This document shows positions 5,097 to 40,216 of a stretch of DNA of 64,000 nucleotides, one piece after another. A program made the position numbers and the translations under genes. The notes beneath the pieces are model-generated. The model did no database searches. It was given only the letters and a program-made list of their open reading frames with translations, and was not told the DNA's origin. The stretch's first letter is position 1. Each line of letters begins with the position of its first letter. The stretch lies in contig JAXDPE010000044.1 in the NCBI GenBank assembly GCA_034668565.1, positions 997 to 64,996 on the forward strand. The letters are read 5' to 3'. The stretch is from Sphingomonadales bacterium (lineage in GTDB: Bacteria; Pseudomonadota; Alphaproteobacteria; Sphingomonadales; Sphingomonadaceae).

Positions 5097-5792
5097 ATGC
5101 GGACGAGTGCGTGGCTTTTGGTCACGACCAGCCTGGTCTTCGGACTTTCCTACCCCCTGCTGTGGGATCATCTGCCGAAGGCGGCGGACATCGCGGTGAA
5201 AGGGGCGGGGGTCGGCCTGCTCGCGCTTTCGGCGGCGCTGGGCCCGCGAGGCCCGGAGGGACGGCTGCTCGCCTTCGTGATGGCATTGGGAGCGATGGGC
5301 GACGTGTTGATCGAAGTTTCGCTTGCCGCCGGCGCCGCCGCCTTCGCCGCCGGCCATGTCGTCGCCATCCTGCTCTATCGCCGCAACAAGCGGGCGGGCG
5401 TCGGTCCAGCGGATTGGGCGATCGCCGCCATGATGCTGCTCGTTGCGGCGGCCGTGCCATTCCTTCTGCTCGAGGGTCGAGGGGAAGCCCTGCCTTTCAC
5501 CGTCTACGCCCTGCTCCTCGGGGGGATGGCGACGAGCGCCTGGCTAAGCCGTTTCCCGCGCGAGCTGGTCGCGCTCGGCGCGCTGCTGTTCCTCGCCAGC
5601 GACATGCTGATCGCGCTTCGAATGGGGAGCGGCCTCACCGGCCTCGGCGCGCCGATCTGGCTGCTTTACTATGTCGGCCAGCTGCTGATCTTCCTGGGAG
5701 TGACATCCTCCCCATCGAAGACGGGGAGGGGGACCGGGCGGAGCCCGGTGGAGGGGCAATTGGCGCCGATCTTTGAAAGTCCGCGCCGCTAA
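5097..5792 (+). CDS. lysoplasmalogenase (YhhN/TMEM86) family membrane protein
   Basis: Polytopic, 231 aa. GDVLIE...AAGHVVAILLY and LLFLASDMLIAL are YhhN-like. The last ~25 codons are encoded by the repeat at 5707-5792. Confidence 0.7.
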   Translation: MRTSAWLLVTTSLVFGLSYPLLWDHLPKAADIAVKGAGVGLLALSAALGPRGPEGRLLAFVMALGAMGDVLIEVSLAAGAAAFAAGHVVAILLYRRNKRAGVGPADWAIAAMMLLVAAAVPFLLLEGRGEALPFTVYALLLGGMATSAWLSRFPRELVALGALLFLASDMLIALRMGSGLTGLGAPIWLLYYVGQLLIFLGVTSSPSKTGRGTGRSPVEGQLAPIFESPRR

Positions 5793-21226: not shown

Positions 21227-21955
21227 CTAATTCACCCGCTTCACATAGACCCGCCCGTCCTCGCGCCTTTCGGTCGCGAAATTGGGCACCGCGTCGATCA
21301 GCTCGTGAAGGCCGGCATAGCCGTAGCTCCGGGCGTCGAACGAGGAGCGATTGCCGGCGCGCTGGCCGACCTCGGAGAGGCTGGCATAGCCGCGGCCGTC
21401 GCGCTTGGAGGCCCGGAAGGCCGCTCCGAGCAGCTTGACAAGCTCTTCGTCGACCTTGCGCTTGGGCGGGGCAGGGGCCGCCTCGGGTGCGGCGTCATGC
21501 TCCTGGCCCTGGGCGAGCGCCCCGACGTCGATGAACCGGCTGCAGGCCTGCTGGAAGGAGACCGGCGCCCGCGACGTCCCGAAGCCGTAGACCGGGACCC
21601 CGTCCTGCCGGATCCGCATCGCCAGCGGCATGAAGTCGCTGTCGCTCGACATGATCCCGAAGCCGTCGACCCGGGCTCCGAACAGGAGATCCATGGCGTC
21701 GATCGTCATCTTCATGTCGGTCGCGTTCTTGCCCTTGGTGATGTCGAACTGCTGGTGCGGCTCGATCGCATGGCGGTGGGTCATCTCCGCCCAGCCCTTG
21801 AGCCCAGGCTTGCTCCAATTCCCGTAGGCGCGTCGGATGTTCACCGTGCCGAGCTCGGCGAGCACCGTCAGCACCGAATCGAGATGGTCGGACGAGGCGT
21901 TGTCGGCGTCGATCAGGAGGGCGATGTTGCCGTCCTGGCGGTCGGTGTCGGCCAT
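21227..21955 (-). CDS. NYN (LabA/DUF88) domain protein with C-terminal OST-HTH/LOTUS-like domain
   Basis: IALLIDADNAS, ATDMKMTIDAMDL and IMSSDSDFMPLAMRIRQDGVPVYGFG match the NYN core. The C-terminal ~70 aa (GYASLSEVGQRAG...) look OST-HTH-like. Confidence 0.85.
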   Translation of the reverse strand: MADTDRQDGNIALLIDADNASSDHLDSVLTVLAELGTVNIRRAYGNWSKPGLKGWAEMTHRHAIEPHQQFDITKGKNATDMKMTIDAMDLLFGARVDGFGIMSSDSDFMPLAMRIRQDGVPVYGFGTSRAPVSFQQACSRFIDVGALAQGQEHDAAPEAAPAPPKRKVDEELVKLLGAAFRASKRDGRGYASLSEVGQRAGNRSSFDARSYGYAGLHELIDAVPNFATERREDGRVYVKRVN

Positions 21956-21956
21956 G

Positions 21957-22385
21957 CTAGCGCCGGCGTCCGCGGTCGAGGCCGGCGTCGACGCTCCACG
22001 GTCCGGCCCCGGCGGCGGCGATGTAGAGGAAGATGAAGCAATAGAGGATCGCGGCGTCGCCCATGTTGACCGCCGGAAACATCGACTTCGGGGCGTGGAA
22101 CATCCAGTAAGCGACCGCCATCTCGCCGGCGAGGATGAAGGCCGCGGGCCGGGTGAACAGGCCGATCAGAAGCAGCGCGCCCCCGACCAGCTCGAGGATT
22201 CCGCCGAACCAGAACAGGCTGAAGGCTGGCGGGATCATCCCCGGAGGCGGCATCGGCGGGAAGCCGAGAAGCTTCTGAGCGCCATGCTCCAGGAACAACA
22301 GCCCCGAGACGATCCTGAGAACGCTGAGCAGGCGGGGCGCCCAGGCCGTCGGCAGTCCCAGATCGCGCATCGACATTCCTTCCAT
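21957..22385 (-). CDS. DoxX family membrane protein
   Basis: LRIVSGLLFLEHGAQKLLGFP motif, 4 TM segments, 142 aa. Confidence 0.8.
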   Translation of the reverse strand: MEGMSMRDLGLPTAWAPRLLSVLRIVSGLLFLEHGAQKLLGFPPMPPPGMIPPAFSLFWFGGILELVGGALLLIGLFTRPAAFILAGEMAVAYWMFHAPKSMFPAVNMGDAAILYCFIFLYIAAAGAGPWSVDAGLDRGRRR

Positions 22386-22512
22386 TCAAGCTTGCGGCCA
22401 GTGCCTAACACCCCCGCGCCATGCGCGAAAGCCGCGACCGGCAAACCCTTGAGCCCGCGAGATTATTCGACGCTGGCGCTTTCCGGCTTTCTGCGGCAGA
22501 AGGTTTCGCGCC

Positions 22513-23181
22513 ATGGCCGGTCTTCGAAGCCTCTACGACGTCCTCAATGTCGCTCCCGAAGCGGAGCCGGTCGTCGTCGAGGCGGCCTACAAGGCGCTGA
22601 TCAAGAAATATCATCCCGACCAGGCGGTCGAGGCGCCGGTCCCCAAGGACGCGACCGCGATCAACGAGGCCTTCGCGATCCTCAAGGATCCGACCAAAAG
22701 GGCCGATTACGACCATCGTCTGTGGACCAAGCAGCAGGCGATCCGCCTCGCGGAGGCCCAGGTCGCCAGCGCCGGCCGGCCGCCGCGCTTCGTCGCGGTC
22801 AGCGGCTGGCTGATCGCCGGCCTGCTCGCCGCCGCGCTCGCCGCGGTCGCCATGGGCAAGAGCCTGGTGCCGCCCCGGATGAGCGAGATCGCCGAAGCCG
22901 CCGAAGTCCAGGATTCGGAAGCGCCGGCGCGCGCCGCCGCCTTCAAGGCCGCCGCCGCCGAAGCCGCGCAGGACCGGGTCGCGATGCCTTCGTCGGCGTC
23001 GGTGATCGCCCGGGTCCGGGGCGAGCAGGGACTGAGCGTGGCAGCGCCCGCCCGCCCGGCCCCCGCGGTTCGCGTGGTTTCCGGCGGCGGCCGGGCTCGA
23101 AAGGCGCGCCCTATGGCCCGGTCGAGGTCGCAGCCGCGCAAGGAAGGCGATTTCCTCGAGCGCCAGGGCTATATCTACTAG
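22513..23181 (+). CDS. J domain-containing membrane-anchored protein
   Basis: LYDVLNVAPEAEPVVVEAAYKALIKKYHPDQ (HPD motif), followed by one TM segment (VSGWLIAGLLAAALAAVAM) and a low-complexity tail. Confidence 0.75.
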   Translation: MAGLRSLYDVLNVAPEAEPVVVEAAYKALIKKYHPDQAVEAPVPKDATAINEAFAILKDPTKRADYDHRLWTKQQAIRLAEAQVASAGRPPRFVAVSGWLIAGLLAAALAAVAMGKSLVPPRMSEIAEAAEVQDSEAPARAAAFKAAAAEAAQDRVAMPSSASVIARVRGEQGLSVAAPARPAPAVRVVSGGGRARKARPMARSRSQPRKEGDFLERQGYIY

Positions 23182-23504
23182 CGTCCTCGGCAGGGCACCG
23201 CGCAGGGCTTTTGCGGCTCGCCCCGGTTGCGCCGCCGCACCCGGTCCGCTCCGGCCGAGCGCTCGACCTGCGCCTTCAGCCCGCTCCTCTCCTTGCGGTA
23301 GCCCATGGCCTCCAGGCAGTCATAGGCATTGAGCAGGGCCGCCACCGGATCCATCCAATATTTGTGGTTCGCCTCGCGGGTGCAGGAATCGATATCGACC
23401 TGCTGCTCGGCCAGCGTCTTCGTCGGGTGCGACACCTGTGCTGTGCAGGCCACCAAAACCGAGAGCGGGGCGAGGGCAAGCAGCGCGATCGGGACGAGCT
23501 TCAT
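23178..23504 (-). CDS. hypothetical lipoprotein
   Basis: Lipobox-like LSVLVAC after MKLVPIALLALAP. 108 aa, with a convergent 4-nt overlap with the J-domain gene. Confidence 0.5.
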   Translation of the reverse strand: MKLVPIALLALAPLSVLVACTAQVSHPTKTLAEQQVDIDSCTREANHKYWMDPVAALLNAYDCLEAMGYRKERSGLKAQVERSAGADRVRRRNRGEPQKPCAVPCRGR

Positions 23505-23549
23505 TCCCGCCTTCTTGCATCAGGCGCTCCGGATCGCAACTTTGGGGCT

Positions 23550-24119
23550 GTGAAACGCGCCGCCGCCGCCCTTGCCGCAATCCTTTTCCTCGCCGCCTGC
23601 AGCTCCGAATCGCGGCCGCCCTGGGCCGATGGCCGGATGGTCACCGAAGAGGTGCGACGCGGCGTCGAAGCGCAGGATCTCTCCGGGTTCGAACGGCGGC
23701 TGCTCGCCGTCCACAATCGCGAGCGGGCGGCTATCGGAGCGCGGCCGCTGGTCTGGGATCCCGGCCTCGCCGCCGCCGCCGCCGCTTACGGGCCAGCTCT
23801 GGAGCGGCTCGGCAAGCTCGCCCACTCGCCTCCCGAGGCCAGGCCCGGGCAGGGCGAGAATCTGTGGATGGGCACTCGCGACGCCTATGAGCTGGAGGAG
23901 ATGGTGGGAGGCTGGGCGGCGGAGAAGAGCCTGTTCCGGCCCGGAAACTTTCCGGCAGTCAGCACCAGCGGCAATTGGAGCGACGTCGGCCACTATACGC
24001 AGATGATCTGGAAGGACACGACCCGGATCGGCTGCGCCGTCCACAAGAGCCGTCAATGGGATTTCCTCATCTGCCGCTATTCGCCGCCGGGCAATGTCGT
24101 CGGGCAGCGCGTTCCTTGA
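23550..24119 (+). CDS. CAP/SCP/PR-1 domain lipoprotein
   Basis: GTG 23550 gives VKRAAAALAAILFLAAC (lipobox). HNRERAAIGARPLVWD, GENLW and HYTQMIWKDTTRIGCA are CAP-domain motifs. This is only the 3' part of the long track ORF 21837..24119. Confidence 0.8.
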   Translation: MKRAAAALAAILFLAACSSESRPPWADGRMVTEEVRRGVEAQDLSGFERRLLAVHNRERAAIGARPLVWDPGLAAAAAAYGPALERLGKLAHSPPEARPGQGENLWMGTRDAYELEEMVGGWAAEKSLFRPGNFPAVSTSGNWSDVGHYTQMIWKDTTRIGCAVHKSRQWDFLICRYSPPGNVVGQRVP

Positions 24120-30282: not shown

Positions 30283-30384
30283 CGAGGAGCGTCCTAGAAC
30301 ATTGGCGGCCGAATTGTACCCCAATAGCGTCGCCACCCTCGTCATTCCGGCCCTTCGACGCCGCCTGCGGCGGCGCTCAGGATA

Positions 30385-30481
30385 AACTTCGGCGAAGCCG
30401 AAGGCCGGAATCCATGAACACGGCCGGTCGACATCCTGACACGCCGGTGTTCATGGATCCCGGCCTTCGCCGGGATGACGG
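30385..30481. repeat. short palindromic element (CCGGCCTTCGCCGGG arms, nested GAACACCGGCG hairpin)
   Basis: ...GGCGAAGCCGAAGGCCGGAATCCATGAACACGGCC ... CGCCGGTGTTCATGGATCCCGGCCTTCGCCGGGATGACGG. Confidence 0.65.
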
Positions 30482-30535
30482 CTCCTGCCGCCCACCTTGC
30501 CCGCCGGCGCCTTTGCCCTTATCTCCCGGCCTCCC

Positions 30536-31534
30536 ATGAACAAAGTCGCGCCCATCCAGATCGGCCCCGTCCGGATCTCGTCGCCGGTCATCCTGGCGCC
30601 GATGACGGGCGTCACCGACCGGCCGTTCCGAAAGGCGGTCAAGCGCTACGGCGCCGGGCTCACCGTCACCGAGATGATCGCCAGCCAGGCGATGATCCGC
30701 AAGACCCGCCAGTCGCTCCGGAAAGCCGACTGGGACCCGATCGAGGATCCGGTCTCGATGCAGCTCGCCGGCTGCACTCCGCTCGAAATGGCCGAGGCGG
30801 CGAAGCTCAACGAGGATCGCGGCGCGGCGATCATCGACATCAACATGGGCTGCCCGGTCCGCAAGGTCGTCAACGGCGACGCCGGCTCGGCGCTGATGCG
30901 AGACTTGAAGCTGGCGGCCGAAATCGTTGATTCGACGGTGAAAGCCGTGAAGGTCCCGGTCACGCTCAAGATGCGCATGGGCTGGGACCATTCGAGCCTG
31001 AACGCCCCCGAGCTCGCCCGGATCGCCGTCGATCTCGGCGTCCGGATGATCACCGTCCACGGCCGCACCCGCAACCAGATGTACAAGGGCGAGGCCGACT
31101 GGGCCTTCGTCCGCCGGGTCAAGGAGGCGGTCGAGGTGCCCGTCATCGTCAACGGCGACATCTGCACCCTCGACGACGTCGAGACGGCGCTCGCCCAGTC
31201 GGGTGCCGACGGCGTGATGATCGGCCGAGGCGCCTACGGCCGCCCCTGGCTTCTCGCCCAGGCGATGCACTGGCTGGCGACCGGCGAGCGCCTCCCCGAT
31301 CCCAGCCTCGACGAGCAGTTCGCGGTGCTGATCGAGCAATATCGCGACATGCTCACGCTCTACGGTCCGGAGGTCGGCGTGAACTGCGCCCGCAAGCACG
31401 TCGGCTGGTATACTCGCGGCCTCCACGGCAGCGCCGAGTTCCGCAACGCCTTCAACAAGGAAGGCGATGCGAAGCGGGCCGAGGCGATGCTGTATGAGTT
31501 TTATGCGCCGTGGCCGAACCGCGCCGCCGCCTGA
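30536..31534 (+). CDS. dusB: tRNA-dihydrouridine synthase B
   Basis: [25 protein letters not shown] and TVHGRTR motifs. ATG at 30536. In the usual position upstream of ntrY/ntrX. Confidence 0.93.
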
Positions 31535-31551
31535 ACTGCACGGAAACAGCT

Positions 31552-31576
31552 CGGCCCGACGACAATCTTCGGGCCG
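31552..31576. terminator. 8-bp GC-rich hairpin between the convergent dusB and small ORF
   Basis: CGGCCCGA-CGACAATCT-TCGGGCCG. There is no strong T-tract, so function as a terminator is uncertain. Confidence 0.3.
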
Positions 31577-31594
31577 CCAGACTGCCTACGAATT

Positions 31595-31744
31595 TTATGG
31601 GATTTGTGTGCAGCCGTCTGGGGTGCAGTAAAAAGTCATGCAACCGCTCTCATTACAGATTGTGATTAATCTGCCTGTCCGCTGTGCATAGGTCGGCGCC
31701 AAGGGCAACGCCAAGGCCACTAATGCGAAAAGAGCCTTTCTCAT
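31595..31744 (-). CDS. candidate small secreted cysteine-rich peptide (49 aa; below the ORF-track cutoff)
   Basis: My translation: MRKALFALVALALPLAPTYAQRTGRLITICNESGCMTFYCTPDGCTQIP*. GGGGA lies 7 nt before the ATG. Signal-peptide-like N-terminus with TYA-Q site, and a regular CX4CX4CX4C spacing. Confidence 0.45.
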   Translation of the reverse strand: MRKALFALVALALPLAPTYAQRTGRLITICNESGCMTFYCTPDGCTQIP

Positions 31745-31824
31745 ATCTAATTCCCCATTGATTAGAGCTCAAATGCCCTGAGGCAATGTGACATAAGATT
31801 CTTATTGCTTCAACAGATCAGTTA

Positions 31825-32006
31825 CTGGCTCGGGCGTTACCGCAGCGCGATTGGAATGAACTGTGCCCGCACGCATGTCGACTGGCACATCTCCGGGTTT
31901 CAGGGCTCGGCCGAGTTCCGCAACGCCTTCAACAAGGAAGGCGAAGCGGGCGGAGGCGATGCTCTACGAGTTTTACGCGCCCTGGCTGAGCCGGGCGGCG
32001 GCTTAG
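31825..32006 (+). pseudogene. decayed duplicate of the dusB 3' end
   Basis: [32 protein letters not shown] parallels dus[34 protein letters not shown] 35-nt identical core (GCCGAGTTCCGCAACGCCTTCAACAAGGAAGGCGA) is followed by a 5-nt deletion that shifts the frame. Confidence 0.75.
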
Positions 32007-32032
32007 CGCATCGGGCGCTGAAATCCGCATCG

Positions 32033-32119
32033 CCGTCATGCCGGGCTTGACCCAGCATCCACCTTCTTCCGGACACTGGCGGAAAGAAAGGTGGACCCCG
32101 GGTCAAGCCCGGGGTGACG
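32033..32119. repeat. palindromic MITE-like element, family C
   Basis: CCGTCATGCCGGGCTTGACCCAGCATCC ... GGACCCCGGGTCAAGCCCGGGGTGACG. Confidence 0.8.
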
Positions 32120-32235
32120 ATCCAGGTTCTGCGCATTCCATCCTTGCGGCTCCATCCGTCCGCACTGCGGCCAAAGGAGCCTTTGACGCTACATACTGTG
32201 TTCTTTTTGCCACAATGTTGTGGTAGCGCGGTTGT

Positions 32236-34512
32236 GTGAACGCGGAACTTCCGATCCTCCCCGAATCCAACCCAAGGTGGCGCCGGCGGCTTTCGGTGGC
32301 ATTGAGGCGCGGACGTTTCATGCCGCTGGTCGAGGCTGCGACCCTGATCGCGCTACTTGCCGTGGCGACAGTCAGCTACTTCATCATCACCGAGGAAGGG
32401 TCGCCGGAAACGCTGCTGACCCCGCCCATGGTCGCGGCCCTGCTGGTGGCGAACCTCGTGCCGGCGATGGCGCTGATGGTCCTAGTGGCGCGCCGCTTGG
32501 CCATGCGCCGAGCGGCGGAGTCGCCGATCGGGGGCAGGGGACGATTGCACGTCAGGCTAGTGGCGCTATTCTCGGTCATCGCCAGCGTACCGACCCTGCT
32601 CGTCGTGATCTTCGCATCCTTGCTGTTCCAGAGCGGACTGAATTTCTGGCTATCGAACCGTGCGCAGACTGTGATCAAAAATGCTCAGGAGGTGGCAACC
32701 CACTACCGAAATGATCAGCGCAACGAAGTTCAGCTCGAAGTTCAGACCATGGGTAAGGACGTCGTGGGATGGGTCAACGAGCGTGGGTTCGACGATCCGC
32801 AGTTCGACGATTTCATGGTCGATCAAACCTCTCGACGTTATCTCCTCGAGACTGCACTTCTAACGATAACCCGCACCGGAGAGATCCAGATGCAGGGCGG
32901 GGTGAATTTGTATGATCGGCCGCTCGAGGATCGTTTTCCCGCGTCTACCTTGACGAAATTGAAGGCGGGGCAGGCAATAGCGAAAGAGGCAGGCGGCGAT
33001 CGAGTCGAAGCGGTTGTCCGGTTAGACCCGCAAGCGCTGGTATTCGTCTACGGGGCTCGCAAGGTAAATGCGCGGCTCCTGAAGCTGGCCGAAGAAGCTC
33101 AGAGCGCGGCCAGCGACTATCAGAAGACGCTCGCGCGAGCGCGCACTCTGCAGTTCCGGTTCAACGGTATAATGCTGCTTGTGTCGCTGCTGATCGTGGG
33201 TCTTTCCATCTGGATCGCTCTCAAGCTGGCCGATCGCCTGGTTCGGCCGGTCGGCGAGTTGGTCGATGCCGCCCGGCGGATCACCGCGGGCGATCTCACC
33301 ACCCGAGTCACCGCCGGCGAGCTGACCAGTCGGGTCACCGGCATGCGCGTGCAAGACGAGATCGGCATATTAGGGCGGGCGTTCAACCGGATGACCAAGC
33401 GCCTGGAGGAACAGACCGGCGATCTCGTTTCCGCCAACGCCCAGCTGGAAAGCCGACGCACCTTCATCGAGGCCGTGCTGTCCGGGGTGACCGCCGGTAT
33501 CATATCGGTCGATCAGGAGCGAAACGTCCGCCTCATCAACAGCTCGGCCGAGGCGTTGCTCAAGACCGAGCGGGGCCAGGCCGTCGGCCACAAGCTCGCC
33601 GAGCTCGCGCCGGAGCTCGACGCCCATCTCGACGGCGATCTGCGCGAGGACATCATCCAGTTCGCGTCCGGGGGCGAGCCGCGTACACTGGCCGTCAAGC
33701 GGGTGCGCGTGGAAGGAGGGCACGTCCTCACCTTCGACGACATCACCGAGCAATTGCTCGACCAGCGCCGGGCCGCCTGGTCGGACGTCGCCCGGCGGAT
33801 CGCCCACGAGATCCGCAACCCGCTGACCCCGATCCAGCTCGCCGCCGAACGGCTGCAGAGGCGCTACGGCAAGGAGATCACGTCCGACGCGGGAACGTTC
33901 GAGAAGCTCACCGGCACGATCATCCGCCAGGTCGGCGACCTTCGCCGGATGGTCGACGAATTCTCGTCATTCGCGCGGATGCCCAAGCCGGTCTTCCGCG
34001 AAGAGAAGATCGCCGACATCGTCGGGGAATCGCTCTTCCTCCATCAGGTCGCCCATCCCGACATCGCCTTCAGGCTCGACTCGCCCGATCCTTCGCCTCT
34101 GCTCGTCTGCGACCGCCGCCAGCTCGGCCAGGCGCTGACCAACGTCATCAAGAACGCGGTCGAGGCGATCCAGCAAAAGCGGGAGGACGGACGCAAGAGC
34201 GGCGACGACCGGGTCGCGGTCGCCATCCGCGACACCGAGAACCGGATCGTGATCGAGGTCGCCGACACCGGCATCGGCCTGCCCGCCGAGCGCGGCCGGC
34301 TGACCGAGCCCTATATGACGACCCGAGTGAAGGGCACCGGCCTCGGCCTCGCCATCGTCAAGAAGATCGTCGAGGAGCATTTCGGCAATATCGAGTTCGA
34401 CGATTCGGCCGGGGGCGGCACGCTCGTCAGGCTCGTCTTCGACGCCGAAGCCCTCGCCCGACTCGCCGGCGCCGCCGCCGAGCAACCCCAGAGCATATCG
34501 GCAGACGGATAG
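32236..34512 (+). CDS. ntrY: two-component sensor histidine kinase NtrY
   Basis: N-terminal TM block, HAMP, PAS, H-box AHEIRNPLTPIQLAAERL, and an ATPase domain with GTGLGLAIVKKIVEEH. The GTG 32236 start is uncertain, with an alternative ATG at 32320. Confidence 0.9.
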   Translation: MNAELPILPESNPRWRRRLSVALRRGRFMPLVEAATLIALLAVATVSYFIITEEGSPETLLTPPMVAALLVANLVPAMALMVLVARRLAMRRAAESPIGGRGRLHVRLVALFSVIASVPTLLVVIFASLLFQSGLNFWLSNRAQTVIKNAQEVATHYRNDQRNEVQLEVQTMGKDVVGWVNERGFDDPQFDDFMVDQTSRRYLLETALLTITRTGEIQMQGGVNLYDRPLEDRFPASTLTKLKAGQAIAKEAGGDRVEAVVRLDPQALVFVYGARKVNARLLKLAEEAQSAASDYQKTLARARTLQFRFNGIMLLVSLLIVGLSIWIALKLADRLVRPVGELVDAARRITAGDLTTRVTAGELTSRVTGMRVQDEIGILGRAFNRMTKRLEEQTGDLVSANAQLESRRTFIEAVLSGVTAGIISVDQERNVRLINSSAEALLKTERGQAVGHKLAELAPELDAHLDGDLREDIIQFASGGEPRTLAVKRVRVEGGHVLTFDDITEQLLDQRRAAWSDVARRIAHEIRNPLTPIQLAAERLQRRYGKEITSDAGTFEKLTGTIIRQVGDLRRMVDEFSSFARMPKPVFREEKIADIVGESLFLHQVAHPDIAFRLDSPDPSPLLVCDRRQLGQALTNVIKNAVEAIQQKREDGRKSGDDRVAVAIRDTENRIVIEVADTGIGLPAERGRLTEPYMTTRVKGTGLGLAIVKKIVEEHFGNIEFDDSAGGGTLVRLVFDAEALARLAGAAAEQPQSISADG

Positions 34513-36124: not shown

Positions 36125-36622
36125 ATGGCCGACAAGGTCAACAACCTCCAGGATCTGTTCCTGAACGGCCTTCGCCGGTCGAAGACTCCGGTGACCATGT
36201 TCCTGGTCAAGGGCGTGAAGCTGCAGGGCATCATAACCTGGTTCGACAATTTCTCGGTGCTCCTGCGCCGGGACGGCCAGGCCCAGCTCATCTACAAGCA
36301 CGCCATCTCGACGATCATGCCCGCCCATCCGATCGACATGGGCGAGATCGAGCGCGCCTTCGACGAAGGCGGCGCCGTCAAGAAGCCGGCCTTGCTCCAG
36401 GAAGCCTTTCTCGGCGCCGTCCGCCGCTCGGGCGAGCCGGTCACCATGTTTCTGGTCAACGGCGTGATGCTTCAGGGAGAAATCGCCGCCTTCGATCTGT
36501 TCTGCATGCTACTCCAGCGCGACGGCCTGTCGCAGCTCGTCTACAAGCACGCCATCTCGACCGTGCAGCCGGAACGGCCTGTGAGCTTCATGGAGCAGGA
36601 TGACGAGGAGCCGGCCGCCTGA
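36125..36622 (+). CDS. hfq: RNA chaperone Hfq, tandem two-domain form
   Basis: Two complete Sm-like modules: [57 protein letters not shown] and [57 protein letters not shown]. Confidence 0.9.
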
Positions 36623-38858: not shown

Positions 38859-39455
38859 TCACGGCTTTAGCACCAGCCACTGGCCTTCCACGCTCCAGCC
38901 CGAAAGCGACGACAGGAAGTTCATTCCCAGAACCTGGGTGTCGCCAAAGGAATCGGAGACCTGGACGGCCAGATTCCGGCGCTCGATCGATCCGACCTTG
39001 AGCCGTTCGGCACGGCCGAGCCTGGCCTCCACCATTCCGTTCGCCGTCTGCACCAGCACCGGAAAGCCATCGGTCTCGATTCCGGCCGCAGCGGCAGTCC
39101 TGGCCGAGATGCTGGTCACCGTCGCCCCGCTGTCGACCAGGAAGCGGATCTTCCGGCCATTGAGGTCGCTGTTCACCCAGAAATGACCGTCCATCGACTT
39201 GCGAATCCGAAGCGCCTTGCCGACCGCGACCACCTCCCCCTCGCCTCGGCTCTCCGCCAGAACCCGCTTGCCGAGCGCCATGAAATCGTCCTTGAGCGTG
39301 AAGGCGACGAAGGCGGCTAGGAAGATCAGTACCCAGCCGGCGAACATCTTGAGACCCCGACCGAGCGGAATCCGGCGCACCAGAAGCGCGCTGACGACGA
39401 GGACCAGGACTCCGATCAGATAGACGAAGCTGAGCGCCTGGTCGCCGTCGTTCAC
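38859..39455 (-). CDS. retropepsin-like (clan AA) aspartic protease, membrane-anchored
   Basis: Two N-terminal TM segments followed by FLVDSGATVTSIS (DSG catalytic motif). The GTG start sits in a GTGA overlap with the upstream gene. Confidence 0.8.
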   Translation of the reverse strand: MNDGDQALSFVYLIGVLVLVVSALLVRRIPLGRGLKMFAGWVLIFLAAFVAFTLKDDFMALGKRVLAESRGEGEVVAVGKALRIRKSMDGHFWVNSDLNGRKIRFLVDSGATVTSISARTAAAAGIETDGFPVLVQTANGMVEARLGRAERLKVGSIERRNLAVQVSDSFGDTQVLGMNFLSSLSGWSVEGQWLVLKP

Positions 39456-40216
39456 AGCTCGATTTCCATGCCGTCATAAGCCGGCTCGACGCCGTCGGGC
39501 AGCTCTTCGATCAGGGTGTCGTAATCCATGCTGTTGTCCAAATGGGTCAGCAAAGCGCGTTTCGGCCCAAGCCGGGCGATCCACTCGAGCGCGAGGTCGA
39601 GATGCGGGTGAGTCGGGTGTGGCCGGCGCCTAAGGCTGTCGACGATCCACAGGTCCACCCCTTGGAAACGAATTTCCATCTCCGGAGTCAATTCGTTGAA
39701 ATCGGTTGAATAAACTATGGATGCTCCGCCCGCGTCGAAGCGCAGGCCGGCGGTCGTGATGTCGCCGTGCGGCTGGTCGACCACCTGCACCGACACGCCA
39801 TTCAGGTTCATATGGTCGGGAAGCAGGCTCCCGGTGGCGACGGCGGGATAGCCGCTCTTGCCGTCGAAGGCGTAGGCGAAGCGCTGCTTCAGGCTTTCCA
39901 GGGTCTCGAGCCGGGCAAAACCGGCTACCGGCTGGCGGCGGGCGTGGTAGAGCTGGCGAAGGTCGTCGATTCCGTGGCAATGGTCGGCATGGTCGTGGGT
40001 CCAGATCACGCCGTCCACGCCGGTCACGTTGGCGTCGAGCAACTGCTCGCGAAGGTCGGGGCCGGTGTCGACGAGGATCCGGGCCTTTTCGTGGGTGACC
40101 AGGATCGACACCCGGCGCCGGCGATTCCTCGGGTTGGCGGGATCGCATTCGCCCCAATCGTTGCCCACACGGGGCACTCCGCTCGAAGTGCCGGAGCCCA
40201 ATATGGTAACCTTCAT
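39452..40216 (-). CDS. MBL-fold metallo-hydrolase (PhnP/GPP-like)
   Basis: THDHADHCHGIDDL (HxHxDH motif), 254 aa. Its start overlaps the tatD stop by 1 nt. Confidence 0.85.
   Translation of the reverse strand: MKVTILGSGTSSGVPRVGNDWGECDPANPRNRRRRVSILVTHEKARILVDTGPDLREQLLDANVTGVDGVIWTHDHADHCHGIDDLRQLYHARRQPVAGFARLETLESLKQRFAYAFDGKSGYPAVATGSLLPDHMNLNGVSVQVVDQPHGDITTAGLRFDAGGASIVYSTDFNELTPEMEIRFQGVDLWIVDSLRRRPHPTHPHLDLALEWIARLGPKRALLTHLDNSMDYDTLIEELPDGVEPAYDGMEIEL

Follow-up and report, generated by a model that had tools for sequence, protein, structure and literature searches.

A candidate gene for a four-cysteine, Sec-exported mini-protein in a lineage-specific insert between dusB and ntrY of a Sphingomonadales bacterium

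In Sec-dependent class II bacteriocins, for example enterocin P, a Sec signal peptide replaces the double-glycine leader. The pediocin box of class IIa (YGNGV-C-X4-C) contains a CX4C disulfide by which a small three-stranded beta-sheet is held together; the four cysteines of pediocin PA-1 form two disulfides. Bufferin precursors (DUF2282, or BufA-type) are Sec-exported, cysteine-containing precursors of ribosomally synthesized and post-translationally modified peptides (RiPPs), and MgrB, the partner of PhoQ, is a protein of 47 residues with functionally important periplasmic cysteines. Here, we describe a 49-codon open reading frame (ORF) that combines a signal-peptide-like N-terminus with four evenly spaced cysteines (CX4CX4CX4C). 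It lies between dusB and ntrY in a 64,000-nucleotide stretch of a Sphingomonadales bacterium (assembly GCA_034668565.1, contig JAXDPE010000044.1, forward-strand positions 997 to 64,996); this whole stretch is called the window, and all positions below are counted from its first letter. Kinases of the NtrY family are known to have small protein partners. PlrP, of about 200 residues and with a DUF4390 domain (PF14334), is encoded immediately 5' of the kinase gene plrS and in the same direction (PMC13001219), and NtrZ acts on NtrY from the periplasm in Caulobacter (bioRxiv 10.1101/2021.04.17.440287). DUF4390 is reported to be absent from alphaproteobacteria, and NtrZ to occur mainly in Caulobacter relatives (PMC13001219; bioRxiv 10.1101/2021.04.17.440287). 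The reading favoured here, to which we give a probability of about one half, is that the ORF is a real, stand-alone, lineage-specific mini-gene acquired as part of some 300 bp of DNA, foreign or novel, that entered directly behind dusB, and that its product would be a Sec-exported, DsbA-oxidised periplasmic mini-protein of 29 residues.

The ORF runs on the minus strand from an ATG at 31744-31742 to a TAA at 31597-31595, and its translation, MRKALFALVALALPLAPTYAQRTGRLITICNESGCMTFYCTPDGCTQIP*, agrees with a mechanical ORF listing. The 20 nucleotides that precede the ATG read TAATCAATGGGGAATTAGAT, in which a GGGGA ends 7 nt before the start codon. The ORF and its presumed signals are as follows.

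31595 to 31744, minus strand: the 49-codon ORF (sequence, translation, signal-peptide rule, simulation, AlphaFold2)
31752 to 31756, minus strand: GGGGA motif resembling a Shine-Dalgarno (SD) sequence (duplex energy with the 16S 3' tail)
31736 to 31800, minus strand: predicted 5' hairpin over the SD motif and the AUG (RNA fold, shuffles)
31745 to 31827, minus strand: AT-rich upstream stretch, presumed promoter region (GC by piece; promoter scan empty)
31552 to 31576, no strand assigned: GC-rich hairpin, possible bidirectional terminator (inverted-repeat scan, folds)

The order of these elements is compact and gene-like: 83 nt of 39% GC (genome 0.68), presumed to hold the promoter, are followed by the SD motif at 7 nt, the ORF, and a hairpin that begins 18 nt past the stop. 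This layout is counted in favour of a gene. The hairpin consists of two 11-nt arms (31552-31562 and 31566-31576) that are 91% complementary around a 3-nt loop, and it forms in both RNA folds examined. It sits between convergent stops, that of dusB at 31532-31534 and that of the ORF, which are 60 bp apart; it is equally close to the dusB stop and is possibly a bidirectional terminator. An earlier reading of this DNA, made from the letters alone (hereafter the sequence-only reading), had placed the ATG, the TAA, the GGGGA and the hairpin at these same positions, correctly in each case.

The predicted signal peptide comprises residues 1-20, with an n-region (MRK), an h-region (ALFALVALALPLA) and a c-region (PTYA), and is followed by Q. 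The predicted mature peptide is the remaining 29 residues, 21-49 (QRTGRLITICNESGCMTFYCTPDGCTQIP), with a net charge of 0; it contains all four cysteines, at residues 30, 35, 40 and 45. A Sec type I signal peptide has a basic n-region, an h-region made up of about 7-15 hydrophobic residues without charge, and a c-region in which positions -3 and -1 are small; the peptide passes a home-made rule that scores these features. The rule asks that K or R stand close to the N-terminus and that the first 8 residues include no acidic one, that ten uncharged residues have a mean Kyte-Doolittle hydropathy of at least 2, and that positions -3 and -1 be small, with the predicted cut falling after residues 14-31. 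Both sequence features named by the sequence-only reading, a basic-hydrophobic-AxA-like (TYA) signal layout and four cysteines at a regular spacing of 4 in a 29-residue mature part, are thus borne out.

The six frames of the window contain 335 ATG ORFs of at least 35 residues, of which 11 satisfy the signal-peptide rule. The ten others are 108-458 residues long, have a GC content at third codon positions (GC3) of 0.67-0.91 and are taken to be genuine exported proteins; the 49-codon ORF is the sole short passer with low GC3. In simulated ORFs of 40-100 residues, the rule was passed by 0.2% at the composition of the segment that carries the ORF and by 0.05% at that of the whole window, while a regular four-cysteine pattern with a spacing of 1-8 was found in 0.1% and 0.015%, respectively. 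The two features occurred together in none of about 92,000 simulated ORFs of three compositions, and their joint chance was estimated by simulation at about 1e-7 to 2e-6 per ORF, or about 2e-5 to 7e-4 for one window. A regular four-cysteine pattern (spacing 1-8) occurs once in the six-frame translation of the 64-kb window, in this ORF. Cysteine periodicity inherited from a DNA tandem repeat was considered and rejected, as Tandem Repeats Finder detects no such repeat and the four 15-nt units have nothing in common beyond TGCA or TGTA. Read on the plus strand, positions 31608-31658 have GTGCAG, GTGCAG, ATGCAA and TTACAG at exact 15-bp intervals, which amounts to the cysteine codon and the next base, with the rest of the units unrelated.

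AlphaFold2, run on the single sequence, predicts strands at residues 25-31, 34-41 and 44-48, that is, a three-stranded beta-meander. The mean predicted local distance difference test score (pLDDT) is 79, 93 and 86 over residues 21-30, 31-40 and 41-49, respectively, 12 residues score at least 90, and the five models agree (72-76). As a control, a 51-residue ORF antisense on the same DNA gave a mean of 64, no residue of at least 90 and scattered models (47-64), although the comparison is with one control ORF only, which weakens the argument from the fold. Judging from the strand boundaries, the two-residue turns E32-S33 and P42-D43 would set C30 opposite C35 and C40 opposite C45. The sequences N-E-S-G and T-P-D-G are typical turn formers. 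DsbA by default joins consecutive cysteines, so that the facing pairs C30-C35 and C40-C45 of the predicted strand register are also those expected from DsbA. A Foldseek search of the PDB with the model returned generic beta-meander fragments only (best E = 1.8).

Taken together, these features suggest how such a product might be made. The 49-residue precursor would be exported via Sec by a classical signal peptide, and signal peptidase I would cleave it after Ala20 (T-Y-A20). The 29-residue product would then be oxidised by the general periplasmic DsbA to form C30-C35 and C40-C45, each CX4C disulfide stapling one tight turn (N-ES-G or T-PD-G) of the three-stranded meander, one per face of the sheet. 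The mini-protein would be very small, stable and uncharged, and would most likely stay in the periplasm and act by binding. Periplasmic retention is expected because crossing the outer membrane of a diderm needs a further system, no such system is encoded nearby, and at 3 kDa the product would be too big to pass through porins. For the same reasons, a role as bacteriocin or pheromone is less likely than a periplasmic one. The sequence-only reading had proposed a bacteriocin-, pheromone- or toxin-like or metal-binding function; there is no homolog in the collections searched and no exporter or immunity gene nearby to go with these proposals, the net charge is 0, and Sec reaches the periplasm only, leaving each of these roles unsupported.

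The organism is a soil sphingomonad close to Allosphingosinicella, its DusB being 90-91% identical to those of two Allosphingosinicella metagenome-assembled genomes (MAGs). The ORF is found in the gap between dusB (30497-31534, plus strand, Dus domain) and ntrY, tail-to-tail with the former and divergent from the latter. This gap measures 701 bp in the window vs about 80-100 bp in 7 of the 10 closest relatives and in the majority of the 80 related loci. From the end of dusB to ntrY, the following parts can be distinguished.

31351 to 31534, plus strand: dusB tail 1, left copy of a direct repeat (Dus domain, direct repeats, identity to related loci L001 and L002)
31535 to 31827, no strand assigned: segment X, unique insert carrying the ORF (blastn against 80 related loci and plasmids; GC)
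31828 to 32007, plus strand: dusB tail 2, decayed duplicate (alignment to tail 1, Fisher test)
32034 to 32119, no strand assigned: long imperfect palindrome (inverted-repeat scan)
32166 to 32235, plus strand: conserved ntrY leader (match to L001-L010)

Segment X is 293 bp long with a GC content of 0.49 vs 68% for the genome (the GC profile dips to 0.52); its right edge lies within 31827-31856, which gives a length of about 293-322 bp. It has no blastn match in 80 related dusB loci or elsewhere in the window, and it is absent from plasmids. The next part of the gap, 31828-32007, is a second, diverged copy of the last approximately 180 bp of dusB, and 32008-32165 includes the palindrome. The ntrY leader is kept in relatives (gap positions 632-697 align at 77-92% with the sequence that immediately precedes ntrY in L001-L010) and is, besides the dusB relic, the sole shared part of the gap.

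Which of the two dusB tails is original can be judged by comparison with relatives. The identity of tail 1 to L001 and L002 declines toward the 3' end as the identity between L001 and L002 does, and its GC3 is 0.87-0.90; by this comparison, tail 1 is the native, vertically inherited end of dusB. Tail 2 is frameshifted by a 5-bp deletion and differs at 11 columns that relatives conserve, marking it, on alignment, as a decayed relic of the dusB 3' end. The source annotation calls an 81-residue plus-strand gene at 31805-32050, which is this relic read through the 5-bp deletion and thus a pseudogene fragment. Identity between the tails is a mosaic: 62% over 82 columns, then 31 identical nucleotides (31433-31463 = 31910-31940), then 83% over 63 columns, and the two diverged segments differ (Fisher p = 0.009). 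Uniform decay does not give such a pattern, and recombination or gene conversion at the 31-nt block is therefore likely. Candidate events are homology-facilitated illegitimate recombination, a duplication with later conversion, and a single crossover of the Campbell type involving a small circular fragment. Three other origins were considered. A foreign recombined block made of tail 1 and segment X was rejected, since tail 1 tracks relatives like a native end and there is no breakpoint in dusB; a uniformly decayed in-place duplicate does not fit the 62%, 100%, 83% mosaic; and an assembly chimera is unlikely, tail 2 being a frameshifted pseudogene and not the working dusB of a second strain.

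The palindrome, with 32-nt arms that are 84% complementary and a 22-nt loop, separates the relic from the ntrY leader. Relatives lack it, and it gives spurious matches to microRNA precursors of Rfam on both strands, as expected of a plain long hairpin; no other copies were found, and a dispersed element of the repetitive extragenic palindromic (REP) or miniature inverted-repeat transposable element (MITE) kind was rejected. One possible role is that of a terminator or insulator in front of ntrY.

The sequence-only reading had suggested that the peptide is possibly a cargo of the inserted element. The insertion itself stands: comparison of the loci indicates that it is real, lineage-specific, tiny and without mobile-element machinery. 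The word cargo is overstated for about 300 bp with no integrase or transposase within approximately 9 kb on either side, no terminal inverted repeats and a single copy in the window; insertion is marked solely by the two diverged copies of the dusB tail that flank the segment as a direct repeat. The same history would also allow for a dead remnant, that is, a gene for an exported peptide that was real in its donor, was brought here by recombination and is now unexpressed or useless, though still intact. Its foreign composition, the lack of a promoter match and the decay of the adjacent dusB copy are in keeping with this. However, the ORF, its SD motif, its start and its four cysteines are intact vs a relic with a frameshift and 11 changes at conserved columns, so that the ORF, if of the same age as the relic, has fared better than neutral DNA, an argument that holds only if the relic diverged in place. 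We consider a dead remnant improbable.

A more serious competitor to a functional gene is a chance ORF in a non-coding scar. Here, the approximately 300 bp would be left over from an old recombination at the dusB 3' end, and their GC content of about 50% makes a 49-codon frame expected. This explanation is quite possible, if doubtful, and the observations in its favour are those that weigh against the mini-gene. An ATG ORF of at least 49 codons appears in 34% of shuffles of the 293-bp segment and in 96% of shuffles of the 701-bp gap, making the length insignificant. Codon composition is foreign to the genome, with GC3 of 0.58 (native 0.82-0.91) and GC1 of 0.40 below GC2 of 0.54. The SD motif is correctly spaced and forms a duplex of -5.5 kcal/mol with the 16S 3' tail; 30% of the ATGs across the window reach -5 kcal/mol or better, and for most of the real exported proteins encoded there the value is -6 to -11 kcal/mol. 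A promoter scan found no sigma-70-like site in 31300-32400, there is no clear U-run at the 3' hairpin on either strand, and the terminator scan did not accept this hairpin. Signals for transcription and translation, whose absence the sequence-only reading had named as refuting a gene, are limited to a middling SD motif, which counts weakly against it. The gene caller of the source annotation skipped the ORF, and the 81-residue frame that it called next to it is a pseudogene relic, so that open frames in this region weigh little.

The peptide is also an orphan in all collections searched. No homolog was found by exact-sequence lookup among 15 billion proteins or by a word-indexed protein search. 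An exhaustive phmmer search of 1.84 billion representatives gave four hits, all of them long tandem-repeat proteins without the motif, whose scores are sums over many weak stretches. Neither tblastn on the 80 related loci, nor viral contigs, nor plasmids at the DNA and protein level yielded a relative. In metagenome contigs, peptide patterns gave no relative among the matches listed, where low-complexity signal-peptide patterns probably dominated, and a DNA pattern for the cysteine core gave three chance matches with no start, no signal peptide and unrelated flanks. Phages gave one match at E = 0.4, antisense to a real gene and retaining one of the four cysteines. No family was assigned by Pfam (E up to 1), NCBIfam, PHROGs, PADLOC or PDB sequences, a literature search for CX4CX4CX4C found no paper, and exact lookups of NtrX and Hfq for sister strains returned the source contig alone, a 93-kb contig of JGI metagenome 3300044739, and these data contain no related copy of the insert. 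For a 49-residue query against billions of sequences, significance is estimated to need more than about 60% identity, and distant relatives are invisible to such searches. The recurrence in mobile contexts and the homologs with conserved cysteine spacing that the sequence-only reading had looked to for confirmation did not appear in these collections, plasmids, phages and viral contigs included, which tells weakly against it.

Set against a chance origin are the joint statistics given above, the lack of any other short low-GC3 ORF in the window that passes the signal-peptide rule, and the fit of the cysteine positions to turn residues and to a confident predicted fold that surpasses that of the antisense control. 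What speaks for a gene is an improbable conjunction of features that makes up a coherent picture: an export signal, even cysteines confined to the mature part, turn residues, a confident fold, a gene-like layout and acquired DNA. What speaks against it is orphan status, foreign composition, weak expression signals and post-hoc selection. As the feature was singled out in hindsight, by a reader who looked through many windows, it may be a rare chance coincidence.

The 5' region raises a further explanation. In the predicted leader hairpin (31736-31800, minus strand), a CCUCA further upstream pairs with the UGGGG of the SD motif, and a 9-bp stem takes in the AUG. The hairpin has a minimum free energy of -18.6 kcal/mol (z = -2.3), which 3 of 200 shuffles equal, and the stem recurs in a longer fold. 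Translation of the ORF may be gated by this hairpin if the transcript starts upstream of it. A structured RNA or Rfam family in place of a gene was rejected, the only Rfam matches being the spurious ones on the palindrome and the folding z-scores of the segment being -1.7 and -2.1. Sequestration of SD motif and start is reminiscent of type I toxins such as Hok/Gef and TisB, small membrane-inserting peptides kept in check by an antisense RNA encoded in cis or in trans, and the ORF might by analogy encode a membrane-anchored small protein whose uncleaved hydrophobic anchor damages or modulates the inner membrane; as in hok-like loci, the 5' hairpin would normally prevent its translation. The length of about 50 residues, the basic and then hydrophobic N-terminal half, and the position of an unannotated orphan in acquired intergenic DNA are all shared with such toxins, which as a rule show little conservation and escape gene callers. 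However, three prolines lie close to the end of the uncharged stretch (residues 4-21), after which comes a canonical T-Y-A cleavage motif, an architecture of signal peptides and not of a typical 20-residue transmembrane helix. Moreover, a scan of the region identified no antisense RNA or antisense promoter, the segment is not strongly structured overall, PADLOC and Pfam give no match, and the C-terminal part is predicted to be a folded, cysteine-stapled beta-sheet unlike known type I toxins. On balance, we hold a type I toxin or similar anchored protein to be improbable.

The mini-gene favoured here would stand among ordinary neighbours. The local order is ispDF (minus strand), dusB (plus), the 701-bp gap, ntrY (plus), ntrX (plus), hfq and hflX, with cinA also nearby, and all ORFs with Pfam matches at 21.8-40.2 kb are ordinary cellular genes. 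This Pfam scan found no integrase, transposase, peptide-modifying enzyme, exporter or immunity gene, in line with the statement of the sequence-only reading that no maturation or immunity gene is adjacent, and no small immunity-like or ABC gene, of which the former neighbours class IIa bacteriocin genes and an ABC exporter usually goes with it, was found among dusB, ispDF, cinA, ntrY, ntrX, hfq and hflX. A minus-strand operon headed by the ORF was considered and rejected, the 349-residue ORF at 30377-31426 being a shadow of dusB on the other strand. These neighbours bear on whether the peptide could be a RiPP precursor, with cysteines modified by an enzyme encoded elsewhere, for example of the bufferin type (MNIO/DUF692) or a radical-SAM protein that makes sactipeptide-like crosslinks. 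Several RiPP classes typically have evenly spaced cysteines, and Sec signal peptides are found on bufferin precursors. Precursors are almost always encoded beside their enzymes, however, and the scanned region contains no tailoring enzyme, its sole radical-SAM protein being lipoyl synthase; no precursor family of Pfam or NCBIfam matches the peptide. A RiPP precursor is the least probable of the explanations weighed here.

Three other genes of the region deserve mention. The Hfq protein (36125-36622, plus strand) has 165 residues and two stretches matching the Pfam Hfq domain, and may be an extended or tandem-domain form. A 760-residue ORF (21837-24119, plus strand) ends in a CAP (cysteine-rich secretory protein) domain, and Pfam matches nothing else over its first approximately 620 residues. 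At 39452-40216 on the minus strand (L084 10937-11653) lies a 254-residue protein of the metallo-beta-lactamase fold; the Pfam list of the source annotation includes PF23023 (Anti-Pycsar Apyc1), and our own Pfam scan gave Lactamase_B families only.

In two Allosphingosinicella MAGs (L002 and L005), the space between dusB and ntrY is likewise filled, by about 500 bp, and contains a small ORF with a signal-peptide-like N-terminus just upstream of ntrY and co-directional with it: 104 residues at 5111-5425 (plus strand) in L002 and 85 residues at 5112-5369 (plus strand) in L005. Their geometry recalls that of plrP and plrS. They were rejected as relatives of the 49-residue peptide or of each other, as they have no similarity. 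The dusB-ntrY gap may be a recurrent landing site. A bolder idea builds on this: the peptide could be the founder of an unrecognised class of Sec-exported, doubly CX4C-stapled beta-meander mini-proteins that bind the periplasmic domain of NtrY and tune NtrY-NtrX as PlrP and NtrZ do elsewhere, with the gap as a recurrent landing site for lineage-specific modulators. This idea is speculative and, in our view, very improbable; the link to NtrY is weakened by the lack of any sequence relation to PlrP or NtrZ, by the position of the ORF on the other strand and by the absence of the ORF from every relative.

If real, the product would be among the smallest predicted Sec-exported folded proteins and would need only the general export and oxidation machinery, and a few hundred acquired bases would have added a new periplasmic component to a core locus. 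A true link to NtrY would extend the recent idea that sensors of this family use small periplasmic partners. The locus also points to a weakness of annotation, in which the 49-codon ORF was missed and the adjacent pseudogene relic was called. For now, the peptide is a single uncorroborated orphan from one metagenome contig, credible and unproven, and a candidate that is cheap to test.

Compared with described systems, the peptide shares with class IIa bacteriocins a small ribosomal product, a Sec signal and a CX4C-stapled three-stranded sheet, the last two as predicted. It is nevertheless not a member of the class: it has no YGNGV and no C-terminal amphipathic helix, its net charge is 0 and not cationic, it has no match to Pfam Bacteriocin_II (E up to 1) and no immunity gene, and its host is a diderm alphaproteobacterium in which Sec export ends in the periplasm. 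With PlrP, NtrZ and MgrB it has in common small size, an N-terminal export or anchor signal and, by positional analogy only, a place beside an ntrY-family kinase gene. It has no sequence similarity to any of them and no DUF4390 match. The ORF is on the strand opposite to the kinase gene, with the dusB relic and the palindrome in between, and its absence from every relative means that it has not co-evolved with NtrY. Bufferins resemble it in having a Sec signal peptide followed by a short cysteine-bearing core and in acting in the periplasm, but the peptide has no DUF2282 match, its cysteine context differs, and no MNIO (DUF692), DUF2063 or DoxX protein is present among the ORFs scanned at 21.8-40.2 kb, whereas bufferin precursors are encoded beside MNIO and DUF2063 genes. 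Altogether, although the defining features of the class IIa, PlrP/DUF4390 and bufferin families are missing, the peptide would probably work most like a Sec-dependent small disulfide peptide.

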